A stretch of DNA of 64,000 nt from a virus (Duplodnaviria; Heunggongvirae; Uroviricota; Caudoviricetes). The stretch lies in the IMG/VR virus record IMGVR_UViG_3300045988_146577; one strand, 5' to 3'. A model generated the notes under the pieces. It was given only the letters and a program-made list of their open reading frames with translations. It ran no database searches and was not told where the DNA came from. Each line of letters opens with the position of its first letter. The first letter of the stretch is position 1. A program made the translations under genes and the position numbers. Below are positions 4,940 through 53,108 of the stretch, in pieces.

Positions 4940-5299
4940 TCAACCTTTCTTCATCAACTCTCGTTTGATTTCATCGGTACGCATCGTGACATCGGCAGCG
5001 GTGATCGCCTCATTCAATTTCACGATGTCCTCGATTTCCTGCGGTGACTTCTCTGCCAGATGGAAAATGGCTGCTCGAATCACGTCAGAACGAGTGAACT
5101 TCTCGAAGCGAGGGATGAACTTCATCATCTCCAGCAGTTCGAAGTATTCGTCCTCCAGTGACATTGTGCGGCTTTTAATTTTCTCTTTGCCACGAGTCGG
5201 GCGTCCCTGTGGTCTGACTGGTTGGCGCAAAGGAGTTGTGTTCTTAGCCGGTGCATCAGGCTCTTTGCGCTTTGCTAGGTCACCCATTTTCATGGACAT
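4940..5299 (-). CDS. small basic protein cotranscribed with ParA; candidate centromere-binding partner (ParG/ParB-like role)
   Basis: Start overlaps parA stop (5299); Lys/Arg/Pro-rich N-terminus then predicted helices; position-based inference. Confidence 0.4.
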   Translation of the reverse strand: MSMKMGDLAKRKEPDAPAKNTTPLRQPVRPQGRPTRGKEKIKSRTMSLEDEYFELLEMMKFIPRFEKFTRSDVIRAAIFHLAEKSPQEIEDIVKLNEAITAADVTMRTDEIKRELMKKG

Positions 5300-5967
5300 T
5301 ATTCTTCTTCCTCCAGACTCAACAGATAATCTACAAATTCTTCAAACTCGGCTTCCGCCTTTTTGTCGCGCTCGCTACCGGTCATTTCAAAGATAGAACG
5401 ACCAGACTCTTCCGCATCATCATAGACGTTGCGGTTATATAGATTGACTGGCGCAGACTCGATTCCAAACGTCTCAACAATCTCTTTAGCCGCCAGAATG
5501 CGAGACACTTGTGATGGCAAAGCCGGGCACTGGTTCATGACCGCGCGGACCTTCACTTTATCGTTTACATTGCGAACATTGTCGATAATAGGATCGATGT
5601 CACGTAAAGATTTCAAATCACGACGCTTAGGACGCAGCGGGATAATGATAACGTCAGCCATCAGCATCGCTTGTCGCTGAATTTCGGAGTCGAAGCCACC
5701 AGCATCTACCACTACAAACTCAGCTCTACCCTGAAGCGATTTTAGGTGCTTAATGATGTCATCCTGAACGTATGCAAAAGGAATCAGCTCAAGGTCTTCG
5801 TTCTGTCGACGGTCTTCACACCAGCTCGTTGTCGTGCGCTGAATATCTATATCGGTAATATAAACCTTCTTCTTCTTTTTGACTTTCATGCAAACGGCAA
5901 TTTGCTGGGCAACGGTGGATTTGCCAGGCCCGCCCTTTGTGCCGCCAACCACAAAGATCTTGGTCAT
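5299..5967 (-). CDS. parA: ParA-family partition ATPase (small, type Ib-like)
   Basis: Deviant Walker A VVGGTKGGPGKST, 222 aa; class-1 palindrome about 36 nt upstream of start. Confidence 0.8.
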   Translation of the reverse strand: MTKIFVVGGTKGGPGKSTVAQQIAVCMKVKKKKKVYITDIDIQRTTTSWCEDRRQNEDLELIPFAYVQDDIIKHLKSLQGRAEFVVVDAGGFDSEIQRQAMLMADVIIIPLRPKRRDLKSLRDIDPIIDNVRNVNDKVKVRAVMNQCPALPSQVSRILAAKEIVETFGIESAPVNLYNRNVYDDAEESGRSIFEMTGSERDKKAEAEFEEFVDYLLSLEEEE

Positions 5968-35140: not shown

Positions 35141-35205
35141 AGATCCCTCTAAAACACACAGAGCGCGTCCATGCGCTCTAAAACAACTTGTTTACTGCAT
35201 CTTCT

Positions 35206-35221
35206 AACCAACTTGTTTTCT
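35206..35221 (-). promoter_or_regulatory. class-1 palindrome upstream of terminase small subunit
   Basis: AACCAACTTGTTTTCT; degenerate second copy at about 35181-35196. Confidence 0.45.
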
Positions 35222-35612: not shown

Positions 35613-36503
35613 TTATGCCGGTAAAGCAATTTCTAACGGTTTATCCAAAGGTTGTTTGTCGAATGCCAGCAGTGGCAGCGTGTCAGGCAGTCGACGGCCA
35701 AAGTCAGGGTTTCGGTACACACCATACAACGGAGACGTAAAGCTCAGGTTGTGAATGTCCTTGAGCAGCTTCACAATGCTGGCCTCGTCCACCAGACTGT
35801 CGGCAATGTCCTGAATCGTCGTGCCACGATTCCGCCCAGCTTTTGCCAGGGAACTGTTCTTGTGGTAGTCCGCCACCAGATCACGCAATGCACGGCGACG
35901 ACGAGACTCGCTCATTGCGAACAACTCTTTGACGATCGCCTCGTTATCACCCGGGTCGGAACGGAAATGGCGCTGGAATACACGCAGTGCACTTTCATAG
36001 CTCTTCGGTCGCTCAGGGCGGATGAACTTAAACCCTGCTTTCATGGCGAAGGGATTGTATTTGCTCATCGAGGACTGGATCTCAATGATTGGCCGGTCAT
36101 GCATCCTGCTAACCAGGTTAATCATTCGATAAGAGACGCCTACGCCACGATACTGAGTATCCACAACTGAGCGACTGATCACCGCAAAGTTGTTATTCAC
36201 GTACCGACCCCAGTACTGGTTAGCCACGGTGGTATTAGTGGTTGGTTTCAACTTAGGAAACATGCGGTGGCGAGGTGCCAACAGTAGTTTCGGGTAAGCC
36301 ATAACCACGACGCCCACCAGACGGTCATCAAGTTCGCAGCGATAGTAAGTTGGCGCGAAAGGTTTGCCGTCTGTTTTGTAGTGAAGCGACTTAAGAGCGT
36401 GCCAGTCCTCTACAGTTCCCTTTGTGACAGTCATTCGCTCCAGAAAGTCCAGATGACGCGGAAACTCTTCAGGGCGGTAGCGTTTAATGATGATGTCCGT
36501 CAT
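35613..36503 (-). CDS. hypothetical protein with GNAT-like motif
   Basis: VISRSVVDTQYRGVGVSYRMINLV resembles GNAT motif A; otherwise unassigned. Confidence 0.3.
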   Translation of the reverse strand: MTDIIIKRYRPEEFPRHLDFLERMTVTKGTVEDWHALKSLHYKTDGKPFAPTYYRCELDDRLVGVVVMAYPKLLLAPRHRMFPKLKPTTNTTVANQYWGRYVNNNFAVISRSVVDTQYRGVGVSYRMINLVSRMHDRPIIEIQSSMSKYNPFAMKAGFKFIRPERPKSYESALRVFQRHFRSDPGDNEAIVKELFAMSESRRRRALRDLVADYHKNSSLAKAGRNRGTTIQDIADSLVDEASIVKLLKDIHNLSFTSPLYGVYRNPDFGRRLPDTLPLLAFDKQPLDKPLEIALPA

Positions 36504-37165
36504 AAATGAACCTCATCATGACTACCATTGTGATATTCCACCTTCACGCGTTCTTTGTAGTGCTTGGTGATCTGCATATCCGGGCGCAGCGCGTTCTTCA
36601 GGTCTTCGTGAGTCGTCGCCACCATTACCGTTGCACCAACCTTTCGAGCGGCACGCTGGAGGTTAGATGCCACAACCTGAGCGGTTACACGGTCTAGAAC
36701 AGCACCGAACTCGTCAGCAGCCCACACTTTAGCGCCTGACTCAATCAGTTTGGCAATCTTGAGACGATATTTCTGACCGTCTGACATTTCAGAAGGCTTG
36801 CGAACAAACAGATATGCATCGTTCAGACCAGCCATAGATAACAACCCAAGCGCATCGCTGGTCGTTTTGCCCAACTGATCGATGACGTTAACCTCATTAT
36901 CGAAGGTAAAATCATCGATGGAGGCTACAGACAGCCCTTCATCCTTCATCTGTCGTTGCAACTCGCGCAGCACAACGGATTTGCCGGAACCGGATTGGCC
37001 GGTGATGTACACCACATCGCCCTGCTTCACTTCCAGCTCCAGATTGTCGTAAAGCGTCCACTCTTTTTCGTCCAGGCCAAGCCCGAACGACTCAGCGATT
37101 TCCAACGTGCGAGTGGTTTTATTTACGCGTGTCTGAAACGATACGTTGATGATGTATTTGCTCAT
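36500..37165 (-). CDS. ABC-type ATPase (stand-alone nucleotide-binding domain)
   Basis: Walker A GQSGSGKS, signature-like MSDGQKYRL, Walker B VWAADEFGA, H-loop TTHEDL. Confidence 0.65.
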   Translation of the reverse strand: MSKYIINVSFQTRVNKTTRTLEIAESFGLGLDEKEWTLYDNLELEVKQGDVVYITGQSGSGKSVVLRELQRQMKDEGLSVASIDDFTFDNEVNVIDQLGKTTSDALGLLSMAGLNDAYLFVRKPSEMSDGQKYRLKIAKLIESGAKVWAADEFGAVLDRVTAQVVASNLQRAARKVGATVMVATTHEDLKNALRPDMQITKHYKERVKVEYHNGSHDEVHL

Positions 37166-37863
37166 GCAGCCATCTCCCCGGAAGAGATCTTCTCCGCATA
37201 TGCCACAAATGCGTCTACCCCGCTTTCTCCCGTCATTTCTTCCATGTGGGCAAGCAAATCACCAACAACAATGGCAGAGCCAGCAGGGAGCGTTTTAAAG
37301 CCCAATACGTCGACAACACGTACTTCTTCCGCTGCAACTTCACGACTGATCTCGGTGTGTTCATCCTTCTGTCGTTTAGTTTCTTCGCCAAGATCGATAA
37401 CTAGCGAGTCGGTGTCCATTTCTTCTGTCATGCTGCCAACGAGAACATTCAACTCACGCTCTTCAAAGCCGAAAACCTCGATATCGTCCAGAACAAGCGA
37501 CTCAAGCTCTTTCTGTAGCTTAATTGCATCGTAATCAATGCTGGCAAGTCGGTTATCTTCAAGGCGCTTCGCACGAACCTCGTCATCACTGAGATCATCG
37601 CGAACAATAACCGGTACGCGCTCAAGTCCAGCAAAAATTGCAGCCTCACGGCGGCCGTGGCCAGTAATAATTACGTCGTTCTTATCGACCGTAATTGGCT
37701 GGTCAAATCCGCGCTTTTTAATGGCTGCGGCCAGATCTCGGATCTGCTGTTCATCATGCTTTTTGGCATTCATCTCATAGGGAATAAGATCTGCCGGGTC
37801 GCGATATACGATTTCAAACTTTTTGGTCATTACATACGCTCCTTGTAGTAGTCGACCAGCCAC
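37162..37863 (-). CDS. ParB-like nuclease-domain protein
   Basis: ParB/Srx N-domain motif VIITGHGRREAAIFAGLERVPV; acidic C-terminus. Confidence 0.65.
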   Translation of the reverse strand: MAGRLLQGAYVMTKKFEIVYRDPADLIPYEMNAKKHDEQQIRDLAAAIKKRGFDQPITVDKNDVIITGHGRREAAIFAGLERVPVIVRDDLSDDEVRAKRLEDNRLASIDYDAIKLQKELESLVLDDIEVFGFEERELNVLVGSMTEEMDTDSLVIDLGEETKRQKDEHTEISREVAAEEVRVVDVLGFKTLPAGSAIVVGDLLAHMEEMTGESGVDAFVAYAEKISSGEMAA

Positions 37864-38528
37864 ACCAGAGCCTCACCAGCGTTCTCCATTTCATTACCGG
37901 TGTTAATAGCCTGCTCTTTGATGATGTTTTTTATGGTTTCTGCAACACGATCTGACGCATCGAAAGTTACTTTGAAGCGCATGGTCTGATGTTCCGCACC
38001 CACACGTTCGGTTTTCTCTCGTTTGTCGGTATCGACAGGCTCATCACTACCACGAGACAACGCCTCCAGTGCTTCAAGGTCGATTGCCGCCTCTTTTGCT
38101 AAAACCATCGAGATTTCGTCGTCATACGGGGCGATTTCAGACAGTTGATAGTCAAGTTCTGACTGAATTTCTTCAATGAAGCGTTGCAATGCGATTTGGT
38201 CGTCTTCACCGTATCGCTCGTTGTCCACCAGTGACATCTGTTTAGCTACGACATCGCTAATTTTGCCCACAGAAAGCACCGGAACCGTTGAAATTCCTTG
38301 CTCAATAGCAGCACGCCAGCGATGTTCGCCGCCGAGGATTTCAAAAAATCCATCTTCAAGTTCACGAGCCAAAATTGGCTTAAAAAAGCCCAATTTTTCG
38401 ATAGAACCTTTCAGTTTTTCAAAATTCTGCGCACCAACCGAATTGGTGTTCCAGGTATTCGGGCGAAGGTTGGCAACATCAACCTGCAAAATCGTGATTT
38501 TTACATCCATTTTATTGCTACAATCCAC
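37830..38528 (-). CDS. ParB-like nuclease-domain protein (second paralog)
   Basis: ParB/Srx N-domain motif FEILGGEHRWRAAIEQGISTVPV; GTG start per ORF track. Confidence 0.65.
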   Translation of the reverse strand: MDCSNKMDVKITILQVDVANLRPNTWNTNSVGAQNFEKLKGSIEKLGFFKPILARELEDGFFEILGGEHRWRAAIEQGISTVPVLSVGKISDVVAKQMSLVDNERYGEDDQIALQRFIEEIQSELDYQLSEIAPYDDEISMVLAKEAAIDLEALEALSRGSDEPVDTDKREKTERVGAEHQTMRFKVTFDASDRVAETIKNIIKEQAINTGNEMENAGEALVWLVDYYKERM

Positions 38529-42352: not shown

Positions 42353-42874
42353 ATGGTTAAAGACATCACCTACGGCATACCGGCTGAAGTATGGCCGCGA
42401 GACTACGAACATGCTGAACGCACCTTGCTCTTCTGGCGGAGAGCTAAATTTCCTGTAAGAGTCACTCTCGAAGACGGCCAAGTGTTTTGCATGTACGTTT
42501 ATGGTCTCATGTCATCTCGTAACAAAGTTGACCTTTGTCCAACTCCATTTGACAAAGAAAATCGTATAAGGCTCCCACTTGAGCGCATTAGCACAATTGA
42601 ATCAGGCGTAATTGATGGCATTGATTACGATTTCAAAGGGAGACTAACAATACACCCTGACTATGTAGACAACCAGCCATCACGTCGTGACTTTTTTAAG
42701 ATATGTCGTCAGGCTTACCAAAACGGCAAATCTATAAGGGTCTACATGGCAGACGGTCGCGAAATTGAGGGAACGTCAGATGGCGTTGACGCCTGTCTAG
42801 TCACACTTAAGTTGGAAGACGGTAGAAAAATACTTATTTTCTTCGATTGGGTTGAACGAATCCTTCCGTTTTAG
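42353..42874 (+). CDS. hypothetical protein (173 aa)
   Basis: ORF with ATG start; no motif recognised. Confidence 0.4.
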   Translation: MVKDITYGIPAEVWPRDYEHAERTLLFWRRAKFPVRVTLEDGQVFCMYVYGLMSSRNKVDLCPTPFDKENRIRLPLERISTIESGVIDGIDYDFKGRLTIHPDYVDNQPSRRDFFKICRQAYQNGKSIRVYMADGREIEGTSDGVDACLVTLKLEDGRKILIFFDWVERILPF

Positions 42875-43466: not shown

Positions 43467-44117
43467 ATGACTAACATTATCATTTCTAAAAAATCCATCA
43501 TTGAAGCTGCTGCCATTGTATCCGACGAGCTGCGCGAAAAAGCAGATCTGGCAACTCAAACATATAACGAACATTATAAAAATGGTACGCACACAAAAGC
43601 AGACAAAGCAAATATGCAAGCTGCGACCACCAAACTTGCTTACTTCATCAACAACGTCGTAAACGCAGTAGAAGACGAAAAATTGTGCTCTGTTTTCTAC
43701 TATGCGATCAAAGCAAGCAAACAAGCGCCAGAAGTATTTTTCCGTGATGCAATGACTAATAGTTATTCTCTGGAAAAACTGGTTTATCTGGTTAAATCCA
43801 TTAAAGCTGGAAAGTGTGTTTATTCCGTCGCTGATATGTCCGGATCTCGTGTATTCGCATTAATCGATATGATTAACGACGAGATCGAGACGTTCACAAA
43901 TGGCGCTGTTTTCGATTTAATGAATGAAGCGAAAAAAGCCAACGAAATAAAATTAGACGCAGGATACACTCAAGCCAACCAGCTTATCAATCTTTGCGAA
44001 CGTCTTGGACTTGTTGAGAAAGTCAAAGGAATGGGAAGCGCAAAAGCTGGTACGCAGCAATATCGCTTTATTAAAAATGATTTCTATAACTATCTGGCTG
44101 ATGCTTTCAAAGCGTAA
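43467..44117 (+). CDS. hypothetical protein (216 aa)
   Basis: AAGGA RBS; own promoter and terminator. Confidence 0.45.
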   Translation: MTNIIISKKSIIEAAAIVSDELREKADLATQTYNEHYKNGTHTKADKANMQAATTKLAYFINNVVNAVEDEKLCSVFYYAIKASKQAPEVFFRDAMTNSYSLEKLVYLVKSIKAGKCVYSVADMSGSRVFALIDMINDEIETFTNGAVFDLMNEAKKANEIKLDAGYTQANQLINLCERLGLVEKVKGMGSAKAGTQQYRFIKNDFYNYLADAFKA

Positions 44118-44472: not shown

Positions 44473-44884
44473 TTGTCTTTGACTCAAGCCAACAACATAA
44501 AAATAAGCGCCAAAATAACGCCATAGACGCGCTTTTATATCCTTACCAGTACATACCCATTACTTAGCGCATTAACGCGCTTAAATCGCGTTATATTGCG
44601 TTATGGTGTATGGTTAATCATTGGCTTTTATTCTTGCTATGTGATCCGCGTTTAATTGTCGGCGCGGATCGGCATTTTGTTTTGTTCCGTATCCGCTCGC
44701 GTATTATGTGCGCGTGATTTTTCACATAATCACACCACTTAATCACATATGTGATTACGCTACGAAAGAAATCTGGATGTCTCAGGCGACGAAAGTCATC
44801 ATAATTTTCCCCGCTCACCTGTCCGACAACCGCTGGTTGGATTCCACCAGCTTCCCGATGTTTTTTCTATATAAAGGCGAATGC

Positions 44885-45002
44885 AGCCGTTTCCCGAAAA
44901 AATCCTGGCCGTTTCCCGTCGGCTCATGAATACGTTCCTCGCCGTTTCTGAAAATTTCCCTGCGGCAGCTGGTGGCTATATAGAAAGGGCCGTTTCTGGC
45001 CC
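44885..45002. repeat. iteron-like cluster 1: four degenerate copies of GCCGTTTCC(C)GAAAA
   Basis: Copies at about 44885, 44907, 44940, 44988, spaced 22-48 bp; each contains small dyad TTTC..GAAA. Confidence 0.55.
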
Positions 45003-45011
45003 TCTTCTCAG

Positions 45012-45494
45012 TTACACGCCATCAAGGATGTGGATGCGGTTGCTTGCGTATACATTCAGCATAAAGTTAGCGCAAAACAGTTTCCATGTATCAACGCCAG
45101 CGGTATACGTAATGTTTTTGCATTTAATCGCATTGTTGGCGATCCGCATCCCCTGCGATACTGCTTCATCGTCGGAAAATTTGAACGACGATTGAGTTTT
45201 AATCCAGACAGAAATCTGCGTAGCGAACTCAATCAGCTTGGACTGGCAGAATCGCCCGGAGCGCACCGGAAAGACGAACGTTCCGAATCCAGAATTTACC
45301 ACATACGCTTTCTCAAATACCCGCGAGTAACGACGATTGCCAATGATGTCGCGTGCAATAATGCATTTTTCTTGTGCTGACAGTTCTACCGTCTCATTGT
45401 CGCGCCATGCACCAAGTACTCGTTTTTCAATGTCAGAGAACGTTACAGCGATATTGCCATGTGCGGGTGCGTTTACAGTAGCGATAAAATTCAT
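45012..45494 (-). CDS. hypothetical protein (160 aa)
   Basis: AAGGAA RBS; class-1 palindrome in leader. Confidence 0.5.
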   Translation of the reverse strand: MNFIATVNAPAHGNIAVTFSDIEKRVLGAWRDNETVELSAQEKCIIARDIIGNRRYSRVFEKAYVVNSGFGTFVFPVRSGRFCQSKLIEFATQISVWIKTQSSFKFSDDEAVSQGMRIANNAIKCKNITYTAGVDTWKLFCANFMLNVYASNRIHILDGV

Positions 45495-45515
45495 GATTAA
45501 TTCCTTATCGTAAAT

Positions 45516-45530
45516 AACAAATTGTTTTCT
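45516..45530 (-). promoter_or_regulatory. class-1 palindrome
   Basis: ACAAATTGTTTTCT followed by TGTTGGTGTTAATTATCG. Confidence 0.5.
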
Positions 45531-45580
45531 TGTTGGTGTTAATTATCGTTGTACGAATAAGGCGTCAAAGTGGAAAGTTG

Positions 45581-45669
45581 CGGTAGCCGGACGGGAACAG
45601 GTGGGTTTGTCGGTTGCCTGGAGGTAAGAGGTTGGTGTTTTTAGCCTGCGGGAAACAGGATGGTCATTT
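45581..45669. repeat. three tandem degenerate ~30-nt repeats (CGGTAGCCNGG...AGGTGGGTnTTT)
   Basis: Direct tandem units read on + strand; paralogous copy at 49207-49290. Confidence 0.5.
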
Positions 45670-45698
45670 AAGGCCACCAGCATTGGTGGCCTTACTCT

Positions 45699-45980
45699 TT
45701 AGTGGAGCAGACCGATGTCGATGGTATCCCCTGAATCATCCACACGGATCATCAGCATGGCGAAGGCGTTTAGTGGATAGCTTGCGTGCCATTCAGGGAA
45801 GCGGTCATCTCGCATGAAGTCGGCAATGTCGTAAACGCAGCCCTCAAAGTGGAAGAATCGCGTGCTTACCTGCTCGTCATATTCCACATGATCCATTTCT
45901 TGCTGTTCTGTTTCCGGCAAGTCCAGCCATGATTCAAGGAATACATTTTGTGCTTTAGGGGTAATGGTGAAATCAGTCAT
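45699..45980 (-). CDS. hypothetical small acidic protein (93 aa)
   Basis: GAGG RBS before ATG at 45980; track ORF 45699..46112 reads through the leader motif. Confidence 0.45.
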   Translation of the reverse strand: MTDFTITPKAQNVFLESWLDLPETEQQEMDHVEYDEQVSTRFFHFEGCVYDIADFMRDDRFPEWHASYPLNAFAMLMIRVDDSGDTIDIGLLH

Positions 45981-45999
45981 GAGCATATCCTCACTGCGT

Positions 46000-46015
46000 A
46001 AACATATTGTTTTCT
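46000..46015 (-). promoter_or_regulatory. class-1 palindrome
   Basis: AAACATATTGTTTTCT followed by TGTTGGTGTAATTATCG. Confidence 0.5.
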
Positions 46016-46315
46016 TGTTGGTGTAATTATCGCAGTGTAGATAAGGCATAAAAGAAGTTAATACAGGCTGAATACACAAGAAAGGTTCTGGAAGTTGATA
46101 GCCAGGTTTCAAACTAACCTTCGGTTATTAAAAGTCATTTAAGACCACCAATGCTGGTGGCCTTAATAATTATCGCCCGATTACGCTAAGGATCTTTTCC
46201 TCAACTGATTTGTTGTTGCGACTAAACTGCCTTGCGTATCTGATGACAGAAGAGGCGTTTTGCTTTCTGACCATCTCGACTCTTTCCTTCAGGCGTTTCT
46301 TGAAATCGCCCATAT

Positions 46316-46690
46316 TTACCACCAGGCGCAGAAGGTCAGTCTGTTATTGTGAAAGTCGTGGTTCTTAATCAGATCTTCCACAAGCTCTTTCAACTCCCCC
46401 ACATCATGCCAGTAACCTTCATCGTACTCCTGACTGCCGAAGAAAAAACCTTCCCGGGTAGGCAAGTACTCTTCGCAATTACTTTCGTTTATGTGCATCA
46501 AATGAGCCTTCAGAAAACAAATGTCATTCATCGTTAATTCTAAAAGCTCACAATTTTCGACTTCACCTACGTTGCGCTCCATCCACCCAACGAGCGCATT
46601 GAACTTACGGAAGTAAGCAACCTGCTTTCTGGATGCCTCGTTATTCAGATCGTTTTTAGGCTGTGTCTCGATATAGATATCAAGTCCCAT
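46316..46690 (-). CDS. hypothetical small acidic protein (124 aa)
   Basis: AAGGA RBS before ATG at 46690 (track start 46732 is GTG). Confidence 0.45.
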   Translation of the reverse strand: MGLDIYIETQPKNDLNNEASRKQVAYFRKFNALVGWMERNVGEVENCELLELTMNDICFLKAHLMHINESNCEEYLPTREGFFFGSQEYDEGYWHDVGELKELVEDLIKNHDFHNNRLTFCAWW

Positions 46691-46746
46691 GATGGTTTCC
46701 TTATTAAGTTGCTTCAGTGAAATCATTTTCACAAATCAGATAAGGC

Positions 46747-46762
46747 AGAAAACAAATTGTTA
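46747..46762 (+). promoter_or_regulatory. class-1 palindrome, inverted orientation, adjacent to terminator
   Basis: AGAAAACAAATTGTTA next to hairpin 46775-46799. Confidence 0.4.
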
Positions 46763-46774
46763 TCGGGCATAATA

Positions 46775-46799
46775 AAATGGCGCGGTTTGCGCGCCATTT
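46775..46799 (-). terminator. rho-independent terminator
   Basis: AAATGGCGCG-gtttg-CGCGCCATTT hairpin followed by U-rich tract on minus strand, after stop of 46808 gene. Confidence 0.6.
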
Positions 46800-46807
46800 A
46801 AAGAGGA

Positions 46808-47203
46808 TTAAGCGAATACGCTTTCAGGGATTAAGGTGTCGGCAGGAATGCCAGAGGTAATGCGCAGACCGTACTGGCCAATCCAGGTGGTGCTGGTGTT
46901 CAGGCTGGAGGCGAATACGGTGTTAACCATATTCATCATGGTTTCAAACACCTCTTCATCAACCTGGCGGAAGTAGTTCTCGATTTTCAGCAGCAGAGGG
47001 TCAGTTGCATCGAGAATGGACTGGTATTGAGTCGCGTACTCGCCGCCGGAGGCATCACCTTTACGCACGATCGTACTGGCCTGGACTTCGGCACCAGTTT
47101 CGGTGTTGTACGTAACAACGGTGATTTTTGCCACATTCTTACCTTCGGCGGTTTCAGAGGCATAGTAAACATCAACTGTCAGTTTTTCGCGTTTAACGGT
47201 CAT
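46808..47203 (-). CDS. hypothetical protein (131 aa)
   Basis: GGAG RBS before ATG at 47203; class-2 palindrome and terminator upstream. Confidence 0.45.
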   Translation of the reverse strand: MTVKREKLTVDVYYASETAEGKNVAKITVVTYNTETGAEVQASTIVRKGDASGGEYATQYQSILDATDPLLLKIENYFRQVDEEVFETMMNMVNTVFASSLNTSTTWIGQYGLRITSGIPADTLIPESVFA

Positions 47204-47245
47204 TTCACTCTCCGTAGTGTTTTGGTTATTTTTATATTCTATGAT

Positions 47246-47263
47246 CGTAAGTATGTACTTACA
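47246..47263 (-). promoter_or_regulatory. class-2 palindrome
   Basis: CGTAAGTATGTACTTACA just downstream of terminator hairpin 47272-47298. Confidence 0.45.
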
Positions 47264-47271
47264 ATACAAAA

Positions 47272-47298
47272 AAGCCCCGTAAGGATGGCGGGGCTGTC
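47272..47298 (-). terminator. hairpin terminator
   Basis: GCCCCG-taaggatgg-CGGGGC downstream of 47330 gene stop. Confidence 0.5.
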
Positions 47299-47329
47299 GT
47301 ACTGTCGACTAATTACCACTTGCACATTA

Positions 47330-47641
47330 TCAGGCTATTGCCATCACTGATGCTCTCTGAATTTCTTGCTGGGCCACGCGGTTAACTTCCATCAAAGCCA
47401 GTTCGAGCTGATGTTCCGGCCACATTCTTTGAAATGCCATCCAGCCTTTTCCACGCTGGCGACGAACATTCATTACATAACGAGTAAAGGTGTTTTTATC
47501 GAAAGACACCGCTGTTTCACGGAACAGACGAATAGAGGTTCCATTGGCAACGATGTCCAGCAAAGTTAATTGAGCAACCAGCGCAGGCTTCTCTTTTCTC
47601 TTCTGGTCTTTGTCCAGACCAAGAACCAATGATTTTTTCAT
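47330..47641 (-). CDS. hypothetical small basic protein (103 aa)
   Basis: GGAG RBS before ATG at 47641; class-1 palindrome in leader. Confidence 0.45.
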   Translation of the reverse strand: MKKSLVLGLDKDQKRKEKPALVAQLTLLDIVANGTSIRLFRETAVSFDKNTFTRYVMNVRRQRGKGWMAFQRMWPEHQLELALMEVNRVAQQEIQRASVMAIA

Positions 47642-47652
47642 CACAACTCCGT

Positions 47653-47668
47653 AAACAACTTGTTTTCT
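47653..47668 (-). promoter_or_regulatory. class-1 palindrome
   Basis: AAACAACTTGTTTTCT about 12 nt upstream of RBS. Confidence 0.5.
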
Positions 47669-47794
47669 CAATGGCGTAAATAATACCAGTAAGAAAACGG
47701 CTACAAAGCATATTGATCAGGTGCATGAGCGATATGCAGGTTCTTCCCTGCGGCTATAGAGAAATTAAGCCAGCAATGCTGGCTTTGGTTGGGA

Positions 47795-48124
47795 TTACTC
47801 GAATACTTCAAGAAACTCCTGAACGTCCCAATGCTGGACGAGGTGAAGATAGACCTTAGAAATCACGTCATTTTCGCTATCGCATGTGAAGTAGTACTTC
47901 TGGCTGCGGTTGTATGTGTCCACACAAAATTCGCTCATATCCATAAAGTCAGCATCTTCACCCATGTCGCAAATCATCAAAGCAGGTGCGTCATCACGAG
48001 TCATCAGCTCAAGCACCCACCGCGAATTGATCAGAGTGGAAGACCAACCTTCCAGCTCATAGAACTGGTCAAACTCTTTTTGAGTCAATTTCTTGATTTG
48101 GTTGATGTCGATATGTGCAAACAT
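47795..48124 (-). CDS. hypothetical small highly acidic protein (109 aa)
   Basis: AAGGA RBS before ATG at 48124; track start 48145 lies inside class-1 palindrome. Confidence 0.45.
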   Translation of the reverse strand: MFAHIDINQIKKLTQKEFDQFYELEGWSSTLINSRWVLELMTRDDAPALMICDMGEDADFMDMSEFCVDTYNRSQKYYFTCDSENDVISKVYLHLVQHWDVQEFLEVFE

Positions 48125-48136
48125 AAAGCAATCCTT

Positions 48137-48152
48137 AAACAACATGTTTTCT
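48137..48152 (-). promoter_or_regulatory. class-1 palindrome
   Basis: AAACAACATGTTTTCT followed by TGTTGGTGTTATTATCG. Confidence 0.5.
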
Positions 48153-48485
48153 TGTTGGTGTTATTATCGCAATAACGCACAGGCGAAAAAGGATTTTATT
48201 CCGGTGAATGTGGTTTTGGCAGTGAGTTTTCAGGTTCAGTACCGAGTACACTTTTTACATTATTCTGATTTAGTGGCCGAAGGTGGCTGGTGGGCAGAAT
48301 AATCATCTCCCCGAAAACCTACTGAAATCGATTGTGACCCGTTGGCTGTCTGGCACAATTACGCTGTAACTGGGCATTCAGAGGGAATCCAGCGGTAAGT
48401 AAGTTCGCCTGCACGTGAGCGCCTCTCTTCTTCCCGCACATTACAGGTGGGTAGCCGCAACTCTCCCTCTCGCTATACCGGTACG

Positions 48486-48617
48486 CCGCCGTTCCTGAAC
48501 CGGCATCGAGCCTTTTCCCGAAATCCACACAGGCAACTCGACCGTTTCCCTGAAAACCTCCAGCCGTTCCCCGAAGGCAACCCAGCCGTTTCTGTAGCGG
48601 GATGCAGCCTTTTCCCT
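48486..48617. repeat. iteron-like cluster 2: six degenerate copies of GCCGTT(T)CC(C)(T)GAA
   Basis: Copies at about 48486, 48510, 48540, 48562, 48584, 48605; 22-30 bp spacing. Confidence 0.55.
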
Positions 48618-48649
48618 GTATGGACCGAAGGCTGACCGTAGGGGTGTTA

Positions 48650-49600
48650 CGGGGGGGTAAAATCAGGAGTTGAATAAATACGAAAAAGGAGGCGACACCC
48701 CTCCTTCCCTCCCCACTTATACATACCTGTCTTGTTCGCTATACATGTTGTGTTTTCTTCGTGTTTTATCTGTCTCAACCTCTCTATAGGCGTTAATGCT
48801 CACTCCTTCCAGAACGTTCTATACGGCGACTATTTCTGTTGGTGAATTGGGTGTGTTGTTTTCTCTGTCGGTGTATGTAGTTTCATTAGTTTTGCGGTGG
48901 TTCTTCTATGGGGTGTTCTCGTCGTTTTGGTGATTGTTCTTCTCCGTGTATGGAGTAATGACAGGTGGGCGATTGCTTTCGTTATTGTGTTTGAGTTGTT
49001 TGTCTGGAGTGTGAAAGGCTTTTGTAGTTATTCGTGTATTGGGTAATGGCGTTTCCCGTGATTGTTATGTTTCGTGTCTTTTGGGATTGAGAGAAACCTT
49101 GCGGTTACAGGCTTCGTTGGGGTTTCAGTGATTCTGATGTTTCTTCGCTGTTTGGGTAATGGCGTGTCGTGAGTATCGCGCGTATGGAAGTTTCGAATTG
49201 CCTGTGAAAGTTAGGTTGGTTGTCCGGTAGCCTGGGAAGAAGAGGTGGGTCTTTTCGGTAGCCTGCCATAAAGAGGTTGGTTGTTTTGGGAATGGCATAT
49301 GTGTTATTTAGTTGTTTTGTTATGCCTGAAAATAAGTTGTTTATATGGTTATGTAACGCAACGGGAACGATTTTGAGCGTGTGTTTTTGTTGGTAGTGTG
49401 TTGGGTCGTCTGTGGTGAAAATTGGACGCTGTGGCGCTGTCTGCTGCGTAGAATTACGGGTATAAGCTGTGATGTGTGGAAACGTCAATTTTTTAGACCA
49501 AATCGGGTGAAAGCGTTGATGTTTCGTTGATCTGTTATTCAGTTGTTTTCTTGATTGTATAAACAACTATAACTTATTGATATTTAAGGATGTGATTGCG
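48650..49600. other. ORF-free, strongly G+T-skewed (on + strand) region with internal degenerate repeats; candidate non-coding RNA or origin-like region
   Basis: No plausible ORF on + strand; only minus-strand ORF is low-complexity; repeats TTGGGTAATGGCGT at about 49035 and 49151. Confidence 0.4.
49207..49290. repeat. tandem degenerate ~30-nt repeats, paralog of 45581-45669
   Basis: CCGGTAGCCTGGGAAGAAGAGGTGGGTCTTTT then CGGTAGCCTGCCATAAAGAGGTTGGTTGTTTT. Confidence 0.5.
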
Positions 49601-49676
49601 GGTATGGAAGGGGAGTAGTGGCGATCAACGGATTCTTATAGAAAAGAATCAAATTGTGACCGCCATTATCAATGTT

Positions 49677-50456: not shown

Positions 50457-50756
50457 TTACCAGTTCCAGCACTCAAGCCCTTCAACGACCGGTGCACCAC
50501 AATCAAAATGTACAGAGTCAAAGCCTACATCAAGTACTTTCTGAATGTTAGCAATCGCGCCTTCGGATATACCATATCGACGCAAGTCGTCTTTCCAGAC
50601 ATCATCCTGTAACCCGGCGTGGACAATACAACCGCCATCAATTTGTGAAACCCAATCCAGCTCATTGCTTGCGATCATGAATCGGCGAGCATCTTCCTCT
50701 GATGTATGAGATGAGCTGATCAATGCCACCTGGTAGGCTTGGGTAATGTTCAACAT
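50457..50756 (-). CDS. hypothetical small acidic protein (99 aa)
   Basis: GGAG RBS 9 nt before ATG at 50756; class-1 palindrome immediately upstream. Confidence 0.45.
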   Translation of the reverse strand: MLNITQAYQVALISSSHTSEEDARRFMIASNELDWVSQIDGGCIVHAGLQDDVWKDDLRRYGISEGAIANIQKVLDVGFDSVHFDCGAPVVEGLECWNW

Positions 50757-50917: not shown

Positions 50918-52951
50918 TTACTTAACCTGGTGGCCAGGTTTAGCACCAGCATCCGGGCTTAACAGGAAGATATCTTTCCCACCGGGGCCAGCAGCCATCA
51001 CCATACCTTCGGAGATACCGAAGCGCATTTTACGCGGAGCCAGGTTAGCCACCATAATGGTGTGACGACCAATCAGTGCCTGTGGGTCTGGATAAGCAGA
51101 ACGGATGCCTGAGAAGACATTGCGTTTTTCACCACCTAGATCCAGCGTCAGACGCAGCAGTTTGTCAGAGCCTTCAACAAACTCCGCGTTTTCAATCAGC
51201 GCCACGCGCAGGTCAACTTTGGCGAAGTCATCAAAGGTGATGGTTTCCTGAATCGGATCGTCTGCCAGCGGGCCAGTAACTGGCGCGGCAGTGGCTTTCA
51301 CTTCTTCTTTAGAGGCTTCCACCAGTGCTTCAACCTGCTTCATGTCGATGCGGTTATACAGTGCTTTGAACGGATTAACTTTGTGCGCCAGCAGCGGTTG
51401 CTGGATGCCATCCCAGGTCAGTTCCGTATTGAGGAATGCTTCTGCACGCTCGGTCAGTTTCGGCAGTACCGGCTTCAGGTAAGTCATCAGCACGCGGAAC
51501 AGGTTGATGCCCATTGAGCAAATTGCCTGCAGGTCGGCATCGCGGCCTTCCTGTTTCGCCACCACCCACGGAGCCTGTTCATCGACATAGCGGTTAGCCA
51601 GGTCAGCCAATGCCATGATTTCACGGATAGCTTTACCAAATTCACGGCTTTCCCATGCTTCGCCAATCACTTCAGCGGCATCAGTAAAGGTTTTGTACAG
51701 TTGCGGGTCAGCCAGTTCGCTTGCCAGCACGCCGTCAAAACGCTTGTTGATAAAGCCTGCATTACGAGAGGCCAGGTTAACCACTTTGTTCACGATATCG
51801 GCATTCACGCGCTGAACGAAATCCTCCAGGTTGAGATCGATATCATCAATGCGCGAAGAGAGTTTCGCAGTGTAGTAGTAACGCAGGCTGTCAGCGTCAA
51901 AATGATTCAGCCAGGTGCTGGCTTTAATAAAGGTGCCGCGAGACTTGGACATCTTTGCGCCGTTCACCGTCACATAGCCATGAACAAACAGGTTGGTCGG
52001 CTTGCGGAAGTTGCTGCCTTCCAGCATGGCAGGCCAGAACAGGCTGTGGAAGTAAACAATATCTTTACCGATGAAGTGGTACAGCTCGGCGGTGGAGTCT
52101 TTCTTCCAGTATTCATCGAAGCTTACGCTGTCGCCGCGCTTGTCGCACAGATTCTTGAAAGAACCCATGTAGCCAATCGGTGCGTCCAGCCAGACGTAGA
52201 AATATTTGCCCGGCGCGTTCGGAATTTCAAAACCGAAGTAAGGCGCATCGCGGGAGATATCCCACTGTTGCAGGCCGGATTCAAACCATTCCTGCATTTT
52301 GTTCGCCACCTGCTCCTGCAACGCGCCGCTGCGGGTCCATGCCTGCAACATTTCGCTGAAAGAAGGCAGATCAAAGAAGAAGTGTTCGGAATCACGCATT
52401 ACCGGGGTAGCGCCAGAAACCACCGATTTCGGCTCGATCAATTCAGTCGGGCTATATGTTGCGCCGCAGACTTCACAGTTATCGCCGTATTGATCTGGCG
52501 CTTTACATTTCGGGCAGGTGCCTTTCACAAAACGATCCGGCAGGAACATGCCTTTTTCCGGGTCGTACAACTGAGAGATAGTGCGGTTTTTAATAAAACC
52601 GTTCTCTTTCAGGCGAGTATAGATAAGCTCAGACAGCTGGCGGTTCTCTTCGCTGTGCGTCGAGTGATAGTTGTCATAGCTGATGTTAAAGCCTGCGAAA
52701 TCAGTCTGGTGTTCCTGACTCATTTCGCCAATCATCTGCTCCGGAGTGATACCAAGCTGCTGAGCTTTCAGCATGATCGGCGTACCGTGGGCATCGTCGG
52801 CACAGATGAAATTAACCTCGTGGCCGCGCATTCGCTGGTAACGAACCCAGACATCAGCCTGGATGTGCTCCAGCATATGGCCGAGGTGGATTGAGCCGTT
52901 AGCGTACGGCAGCGCGCACGTCACCAGAATTTTCTTCGCGACTTGGGTCAT
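50918..52951 (-). CDS. metG: methionyl-tRNA synthetase
   Basis: 677 aa; class I HIGH (GSIHLGH) and KMSKS motifs; Zn knuckle CPKC...CEVC; C-terminal tRNA-binding domain; start at MTQVAKK (track ORF extends 43 codons upstream). Confidence 0.95.
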
Positions 52952-53108
52952 AGTAGGCATTACTTCTTTGTAGTGAAAAGGGGCTTGATAGTAACAAAAT
53001 GGCCTTATGTCTGCCATGTGATAACAGCATTTCTCATAAATGATTAAATGTCGTAGCTGGAGTACACTACAAGGCGACAATTGCGCAAATTAAAATAAAG
53101 GAGACGGG

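Follow-up and report, generated by a model that had tools for sequence, protein, structure and literature searches.

Phased direct-repeat arrays flanking a small-gene island of SSU5-type phage-plasmids are probable protein-binding sites unrelated to RepA

Which protein, and which process, is served by two clusters of short direct repeats that lie on either side of an island of small genes in a tailed phage genome? This question is raised by a 64,000-nucleotide stretch of viral DNA (IMG/VR record IMGVR_UViG_3300045988_146577; hereafter the window, whose coordinates are used unless another genome is named), for which an original prediction had offered the repeats as candidate origin or copy-control sites, or as sites for a DNA-binding protein. 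The window belongs to an SSU5-type phage-plasmid and is 98% identical to E. coli pLF82 (phage Cyrano); by comparison with the complete element, which in the Cyrano genome is ~108 kb long, it covers about 60% of one such phage-plasmid. Our analyses indicate that the two clusters are probably protein-binding arrays unrelated to the plasmid replication protein RepA. Among the uses originally proposed, sites for a DNA-binding protein are thus the best supported, and a plasmid origin or copy-control locus like P1 incC/incA is not. The best explanation overall, which we hold tentatively, is that the repeats are phased sites for one non-RepA DNA-binding protein and would form the bipartite cis-element of a conserved module.

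All ten copies that had been predicted, four in one cluster and six in the other, were found at the expected places, all on the plus strand and with spacings between 22 and 48 bp. Array A (44883..44999) has units starting at 44886, 44908, 44941 and 44989, the last of them doubtful, with start-to-start spacings of 22, 33 and 48 bp. Array B (48485..48618) has units starting at 48488, 48510, 48541, 48563, 48585 and 48607, spaced by 22, 31, 22, 22 and 22 bp. Array A is situated at the point where leftward and rightward transcription converge, and its fourth copy lies inside the loop of the intrinsic terminator of the adjoining gene, g1 (44987..45002, minus strand; GGGCC-AGAAAC-GGCCC and then TTTCT on that strand), so that this copy may be coincidental. 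Based on 130 distinct units from relatives, the conserved unit is asymmetric, 10-12 bp long and of the form C(C/T)nGCC(G/T)TTTC(C/T)C. The TTTC..GAAA dyad that had been attributed to each unit was not borne out, as its GAAAA part is not conserved over the 130 units. The 15-mer GCCGTTTCCNGAAAA fits only two copies at up to two mismatches, and the copy at 48488, which has two mismatches, is nevertheless kept in relatives.

The clustering is far from what chance would give. With at most one mismatch, the core GCCGTTTCC has 31 matches in the window against 14.0 expected, a number that none of 100 shuffles reached. Up to five same-strand matches fall inside 135 bp, compared with a maximum of two in 100 Markov simulations, and the Poisson probability of at least four matches in one such 135-bp window is ~1.5e-9. 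A position weight matrix built from the ten copies identified nothing comparable elsewhere in the window or in the remaining Cyrano genome. Alignment of the units gave the conserved core; Tandem Repeats Finder called neither array because the spacers are unrelated.

The arrays, as opposed to the full GAAAA-containing unit, are strongly conserved in related elements, one of the comparisons by which the original prediction was to be judged. Both occur in the same orientation and syntenic place in 40 related loci from Escherichia, Klebsiella, Salmonella, Kluyvera and Buttiauxella, where the flanking DNA is only ~70-75% identical, and they are also syntenic and co-oriented in Klebsiella pJN2-26 and Salmonella SSU5. 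They are present in ~65 IMG/VR contigs homologous to the window and are kept in a contig whose g1 protein is only 51% identical. Array A forms a ~125-bp conserved block in 15 diverse relatives and was identified in 239 of 5426 complete E. coli genomes, every time on plasmids of ~95-120 kb and never on a chromosome. In array B, units have been gained or lost across relatives in whole steps, giving spacings of 22, 31, 44 and 53 bp; over all lineages the spacings are 22, 31-34, 44 and 52-53 bp, or about two, three, four and five helical turns. The alignments and the sequence logo have invariant cores amid free spacers and diverging DNA, and the motif is unchanged even in the most divergent relative. 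An invariant core together with unit changes in whole-turn steps is the signature expected of a protein that would read about one turn of DNA and bind cooperatively on one face. The iteron-like form that had been noted, direct repeats on the same strand spaced by nearly whole helical turns, was thereby upheld, and this spacing points to protein-binding arrays on one face of the DNA. We found no description of these repeats in the literature searched.

The genes between the arrays are themselves part of a fixed arrangement. All 40 of the loci compared share one order (array B, variable cassettes, g6, g5, variable cassettes, g2, g1, array A), in which the cassette content differs between relatives at fixed insertion points; the smallest form, array B, g6, g1 and array A, spans 1.4 kb and the largest 4.1 kb. 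Read along the minus strand of the window, a G+T-rich tract comes first, followed by array B, variable cassettes, g6, g5, cassettes, g2, g1, the g1 terminator and array A. The core genes, all island genes being on the minus strand, are g1 (45012..45494; 160 amino acids, phrog_1641), which adjoins array A in every relative, and g6 (47330..47641; 103 amino acids with a basic N-terminus, phrog_5125); the cassettes in the window are g2 (45699-46049), g3 (46170-46313), g4 (46316-46726), g5 (46808-47203) and g7 (47795-48145). In the Cyrano annotation this is a run of small hypothetical genes, CYRAN_105-111, with a phage methionyl-tRNA synthetase on one flank and a FljA-like regulator, the UvsW helicase and two ParB_N-domain proteins on the other. 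Scans against Pfam, PHROGs, NCBIfam and PADLOC left all island proteins as "unknown function", and among island and neighbouring proteins the same scans named only DUF5983, Flag1_repress, ParB_N and an ABC ATPase. One Yersinia pestis element, that of NCTC5923 (L110, L112; a 108 kb contig), has g1, g2 and array A each twice; array B, g5 and g6 were not found within the stretch examined, and the module there appears to be rearranged or partly deleted.

Most island genes are monocistronic, each with its own promoter and 5' untranslated region (UTR) module, and most have their own hairpin terminator. The promoters are sigma-70-like, with a -10 element (GATAAT) followed by a conserved CA-rich leader that holds the palindrome GAAAACAAnTTGTT(TTC). 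Within the island this palindrome occurs on the minus strand just downstream of the -10 element at 45516, 46001, 46748, 47651 and 48138 (range 45516..48151). It has 23 strand matches at ~16 places in the window against 0.2 expected, the places outside the island being 2766, 6004, 35179-35220, 40166, 49328, 50768, 50819, 54757, 57895, 62438 and 63164. It usually stands between the -10 element and the start codon and is found also upstream of parA, upstream of the helicase operon and near the terminase genes. Its distribution is that of a dispersed operator, apparently read by a global regulator, and resembles the P1 C1 operators or the dispersed centromeres of N15 in layout. Based on this shared operator, the island would be a co-regulated and probably early gene set. 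In the published Cyrano transcriptome, CYRAN_109 alone among the island genes was above background in the LF82 lysogen (PMC9928086).

The plasmid replicon, to which the original prediction had likened the repeats, was found elsewhere in the element. The Cyrano repA gene is at 60.6-61.7 kb of that genome, outside the window and ~37 kb from the arrays, and is flanked on both sides by iterons CTCTATAGTGGATA spaced by 21 bp and by GATC-rich, DnaA-box-like sequence. By these features the repA region has the classical RepFIB/P1 layout, and its iteron is unrelated in sequence to the array motif. A further comparison is with PhiR41_1, whose island region is 94% identical to the window and holds the same arrays, and whose RepA is 49% identical with iterons of another sequence, GTATGCTGTCAGCGGT; Klebsiella relatives, too, include the other RepA type. 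RepA and its iterons therefore co-vary and the arrays do not, which makes the arrays independent of the RepA type. Such differences in RepA (49-51% identity) and iterons between near-identical SSU5-type elements were observed for PhiR41_1 (L002/L115) versus Cyrano (L004), and also for CMS-2020a and Klebsiella relatives, and suggest that the replicon is a swappable module in this family.

Other features of a classical origin were also lacking around the arrays. No DnaA box adjoins them, the single TTWTNCACA match being at 44718, ~170 bp from array A, and the window as a whole has fewer such matches than expected by chance. Neither array has a GATC cluster around it or an AT-rich unwinding element beside it; local G+C is 0.51-0.59, with array B forming the local maximum of 0.59. 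Cumulative GC skew, which runs monotonically along the entire genome, shows no origin signal, although it is uninformative here because the genome is almost wholly co-oriented. As had been predicted, family and profile searches identified no Rep-like initiator among the island proteins. Read as RepA iterons for copy control or handcuffing, as at P1 incA, the arrays have only their general form in common with P1 (incC/incA) and RepFIB: same-strand direct repeats, roughly two helical turns (~22 bp) apart, in two clusters around conserved genes. This reading fails on the particulars: there is no Rep gene between the clusters, the motif differs from that of the element's own 21-bp-spaced RepA iterons beside a distant repA, the clusters bracket 1.4-4 kb of variable early genes with neither DnaA box nor AT-rich region, and the arrays are retained unchanged where RepA has been swapped. 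We therefore rejected RepA iterons as the identity of the arrays and consider the P1 copy-control analogy, which did not survive these comparisons, extremely improbable.

What the arrays might do instead is suggested by their placement. In the mechanism that we favour, one protein would bind cooperatively along each array, keeping to one face of the helix, and the arrays so covered would pair by looping or handcuffing, closing the 1.4-4 kb early-gene island into a separate domain. Within such a domain the island would be insulated or jointly regulated, either silenced while the element persists as a plasmid or switched on in concert once derepressed; alternatively, the domain might mark the island for a lytic-phase DNA transaction. 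The length of the island, which ranges from 1.4 to 4.1 kb, leaves the inter-array distance free, as expected for looping. Clusters of operators that loop across an immunity region are familiar from lambda OL/OR and from the flanking sites of 186 CI, and the arrangement here is similar in having two clusters of three to six sites, ~22-24 bp apart, around regulated genes with a few kb between. It is dissimilar in that the operators of lambda and 186 are palindromic and overlie divergent promoters, whereas the sites here are asymmetric, head-to-tail and promoter-free, and the island promoters bear a separate palindromic operator. A looping or insulating role for the two arrays is possible, though somewhat doubtful.

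The candidates for the binding protein are positional only: g6, g1, a 216-amino-acid protein encoded at 43467-44117 and the two ParB_N proteins encoded at 37162-38528. AlphaFold models of the two core island proteins were confident (predicted local distance difference test scores of 81 and 86). The 216-amino-acid protein, which is itself conserved, has a C-terminal segment, GYTQxNQLIKLCERLGLVE, that looks like a helix-turn-helix or winged helix by eye only. Among host factors, motifs of Cra, PurR, CsrA and others and the sigma-28 -10 element were considered, and none appears to fit the repeats. Several observations weigh against phased sites that pair around the island. Neither g6 nor g1 has a recognizable DNA-binding fold, and the search for a binder gave none; profile searches with the 43467-44117 protein gave nothing, its family being narrow and without relation to PDB or Pfam entries. 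The operator at each promoter already explains silencing of the island, so that no additional layer is needed. Units in both arrays run head-to-tail, whereas classical looping operators are usually palindromic. Y. pestis pMT1-type contigs keep array A (twice) without array B or g6, which indicates that pairing of the arrays is not indispensable there for plasmid survival. Finally, iteron-like arrays of 22-bp period, with a 9-mer identical to that of genuine origin iterons, favour a role in replication.

These genuine iterons came from our scan of the collection. The scan searched for two cores GCCGTTTCC 22 bp apart, so that identity in the 9-mer and in the spacing is given by the search criteria themselves. 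It also gave ~32 viral contigs unrelated to the window, where a 22-bp iteron (GCCGTTTCCATTCGGC plus spacer) contains the motif and is present in three to five copies inside a gene of PHROG 9773 (phrog_9773, "replication initiation O-like") and next to three oriC-like 13-mers (AAGATCTGTTATAAGATCTGTTCTTTTAAGATCTGT). An example of the initiator gene is at 1217-2245 of locus L018, and ~30 similar loci include L009, L017, L022, L043 and L062; judged by this combination of gene, iterons and 13-mers, they are genuine lambda-type origins. Their 16-bp iteron differs at two positions from unit 44908 (14 of 16 matching) and at one position from a unit of one relative (15 of 16). The second half-site of the iteron is present in some units (GCCGTTTCCCGTCGGC versus GCCGTTTCCATTCGGC in the iteron) and absent from most. 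We identified no homologue of the O-like initiator by tblastn or hmmsearch over all open reading frames (ORFs) of the Cyrano, SSU5 and pJN2-26 loci, the only "matches" being translations of the repeats themselves (E 0.6), and hhalign of the initiator against the CYRAN_31 family, g6 and g1 gave probabilities of <1%. The initiator family is represented by PHROG 9773 only, without a Pfam model, and was found in 2 of 5426 complete E. coli genomes and one phage-collection record. The shared 9-mer and spacing keep a replication role alive and do not establish such a role. The arrays resemble lambda-O-type iterons in this 9-mer and its 22-bp spacing, the two features searched for, and differ in being non-coding where the O iterons are intragenic, in the lack of an encoded O-like protein, in having mostly one half-site and, compared with L018-type loci, in having no AT-rich or 13-mer unwinding region beside them.

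Immediately to the right of array B, a highly conserved non-coding block at 48620..48725 was recognized by alignment (GGCTGACCG ... GTTACGGGGG.AAAATCAGGA.TTGAATAAATACG ... CCCACTTATAC); a terminator-like hairpin in it (48709-48683, minus strand) is visible in the window, and its helix is not kept in the alignment of relatives. A non-coding tract of 1 kb (48640..49670) has, on the plus strand, a G+T content of 0.63-0.72, a GC skew of +0.4 and an AT skew of -0.5. This is the most strand-asymmetric segment of the ~108 kb genome and the sole one of its kind, and it is abutted by array B. Checks of relatives from Klebsiella, Salmonella, Kluyvera and Buttiauxella placed the tract at the equivalent position, and the divergent relative L113 has a similar one, judged by inspection of its sequence. 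It holds degenerate promoter and leader (UTR) modules and ~30-bp repeats and has no Rfam match; the CYRAN_103 ORF annotated inside it is probably spurious. A second repeat family of ~30 bp period (CGGTAGCCTG..AAGAGGTKGGT) was observed at 45578-45669, as two copies upstream of the g1 promoter, and at 49213-49286, as two copies in the G+T-rich tract.

Considering these observations together, we rank bridging or looping by the arrays as the favoured reading, with a lytic-phase (second) origin or replication-control element close behind and a centromere, a fork barrier and other roles less likely. A role as an origin in lytic growth is possible, if on the whole unlikely. In this case an initiator, possibly g6 or g1, would bind the arrays, derepression of the early promoters would activate the region, and the phage helicase, primase and Pol III would start in or beside the G+T-rich tract, as at T4 oriE or the lambda origin. 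Phased 22-bp direct repeats are a hallmark of iteron origins, the two universally conserved small genes lie between the arrays as repA lies between iterons, and the close match of some units to the iterons of O-like genes, which adjoin oriC-like 13-mers, argues in the same direction. The element also encodes a T4-like replication and recombination set (UvsW, UvsY, a gp32-like single-stranded DNA-binding protein, RecA/UvsX, helicase, primase and Pol III alpha) and must therefore have some site at which lytic replication starts. At T4 oriE, evenly spaced iterons, the role of which is undefined, occur together with an early promoter and a compositional shift (PMC3016281). The arrays similarly are evenly spaced short direct repeats near early promoters, small early genes and a compositional shift, array B adjoining the most asymmetric tract. 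The likeness to T4, which extends to replication of the UvsW/UvsY/gp32 type, is in the case of oriE one of layout only, as the T4 unit is 12 nucleotides long, forms a single cluster and has no sequence or protein homology to what is found here. Against an origin stand the missing unwinding element, DnaA box and GATC cluster, the locally G+C-rich arrays, the failure of tblastn, hmmsearch and hhalign to identify an O-like initiator, the dissimilarity of g6 and g1 to known initiators, the variable distance of 1.4-4 kb between the arrays and a cumulative GC skew without origin signal. The same resemblance to O-like origins, in 9-mer, spacing and up to 14-15 of 16 positions, might instead suggest that the arrays are decoys that titrate, or hijack, the O-like initiator of co-resident lambdoid prophages. 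Given the rarity of that initiator in E. coli, the invariance of the arrays in 239 E. coli genomes and several genera, and the missing second half-site in most units, we consider such a role very unlikely.

Partition offers a further precedent, since phased direct repeats in two blocks are typical of type Ib and type II centromeres such as R1 parC and pB171 parC1/parC2. The arrays would then be centromere-like or other maintenance or incompatibility sites, with the 119-amino-acid partner encoded after parA (4940-5299) or the pair of ParB_N proteins (37162-38528) as the binder. The arrays resemble R1 parC, pB171 parC1/parC2 and TubR tubC, where two blocks are bound cooperatively by a small adaptor; the ParB_N genes are conserved together with the arrays; and no obvious direct-repeat centromere lies beside parA, where a search for such an array led us to reject that location. 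The blocks of those centromeres abut the par operon, however, and here the arrays are separated from parA (5299-5967, by annotation) by ~39 kb and from the ParB_N genes, which are likewise not adjacent, by 6.4 kb. What is found upstream of parA is the palindromic operator, sites of ParB/KorB type are normally palindromic, and the ParB_N proteins match the N-terminal domain only, as in ParB-methyltransferase fusions. Partition is consequently an unlikely role. Slightly less likely still is a replication-fork barrier or recombination hot spot, in which a coated array would stall forks or attract end-processing and inward Chi sites would convert RecBCD to RecA loading at array A, seeding recombination-dependent replication. 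It would suit the convergence of transcription at array A, the T4-type recombination set and a facing pair of Chi sites around units 1-3 (CCACCAGC at 44844-44851, minus strand, and GCTGGTGG at 44968-44975, plus strand). Of 15 diverse relatives, 13 keep the left Chi, at offsets that are not homologous between lineages (-42, -63 and -87), which suggests selection for its presence; nine have the right Chi and six lack it. But Chi (GCTGGTGG) is enriched throughout the window, with 14 copies against 1.6 expected, five of them within 44.8-48.3 kb (the others at 45674, 46153 and 48286) and two of these five inside terminator hairpins; array B has no Chi pair, and the element has no known protein like Tus or RTP. 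A role of the repeats as structured RNA, a CsrA-type sponge (GGA on the minus strand) or a repetitive peptide could be imagined from the recurrence of GGGAAACGGC on the minus strand and from the ORF CYRAN_104 annotated over array B. We consider it highly improbable, as no Rfam family matches even at E<=1, RNA of either strand folds no better than shuffled sequence (z-scores 0.12 and 0.65), the only helix kept across relatives by RNAalifold is the g1 terminator, with no other covarying helix, and 36 of the 130 units have AGA in place of GGA. The period of 22 bp is not divisible by three and the CYRAN_104 ORF is broken in the window; together with the unit insertions and deletions, this period excludes a conserved reading frame. 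We therefore file the arrays as iteron-like binding-site arrays outside the repA-iteron, lambda-O and T4 oriE families, as the defining features of each fail here.

The surroundings of the arrays are shared widely. The 5.7 kb around them are 98-99% identical to ~190 E. coli plasmids (95-120 kb) and to Escherichia phage Cyrano (pLF82, strain LF82) and 80% identical over parts to Klebsiella phage-plasmids, and a match to Salmonella phage SSU5 touches the region. Of 5426 complete E. coli genomes, 246 match the island region, as do 757 plasmid records spread over Klebsiella, Escherichia, Enterobacter, Yersinia, Salmonella and others. S. Typhi pHCM2 is commonly placed in the SSU5-type group as well. 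To the left of array A, the product of a gene at 42353-42874 (plus strand) is homologous over its full length to FljA, which represses phase-1 flagellin (Pfam Flag1_repress, E 3.5e-80), and this gene is kept in all relatives examined, E. coli and Klebsiella elements included. Further left, an operon at 35613-38528 (minus strand), divergent from the UvsW helicase gene, encodes the two ParB_N proteins (their genes at 37162-38528), an ABC-type ATPase and a 296-amino-acid protein; it is 86-99% identical across genera, with partition, DNA modification or defence as candidate roles. On the other side are a gene for a DUF5983 protein (50457-50756, minus strand), with two copies of the palindromic operator in its promoter region, and beside it the methionyl-tRNA synthetase gene (50918-53080, minus strand), which was already annotated in Cyrano.

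SSU5-type phage-plasmids are common, and phage-plasmids have been reported in the literature as carriers of resistance genes. The lytic origin and early-gene control of the SSU5 type appear to be undescribed in those parts of the literature available to us, and the plasmid replicon and partition genes are annotated by homology only. The arrays, g6, g1 and the G+T-rich tract might together constitute a previously undescribed DNA-transaction system of these elements, a suggestion that we regard as speculative; such a system could act as a replicon in the lytic phase, with an initiator of a new kind, or as a new organiser of DNA domains for an early or anti-host island. As a conserved, element-specific cis-element, the arrays provide a handle for finding the binding protein. 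They are also a candidate target for incompatibility or curing, and a marker for typing that does not depend on the swappable RepA replicon. The arrays mark the limits of an island of small early genes that is hypervariable, an obvious region in which to search for functions in anti-defence or host takeover.

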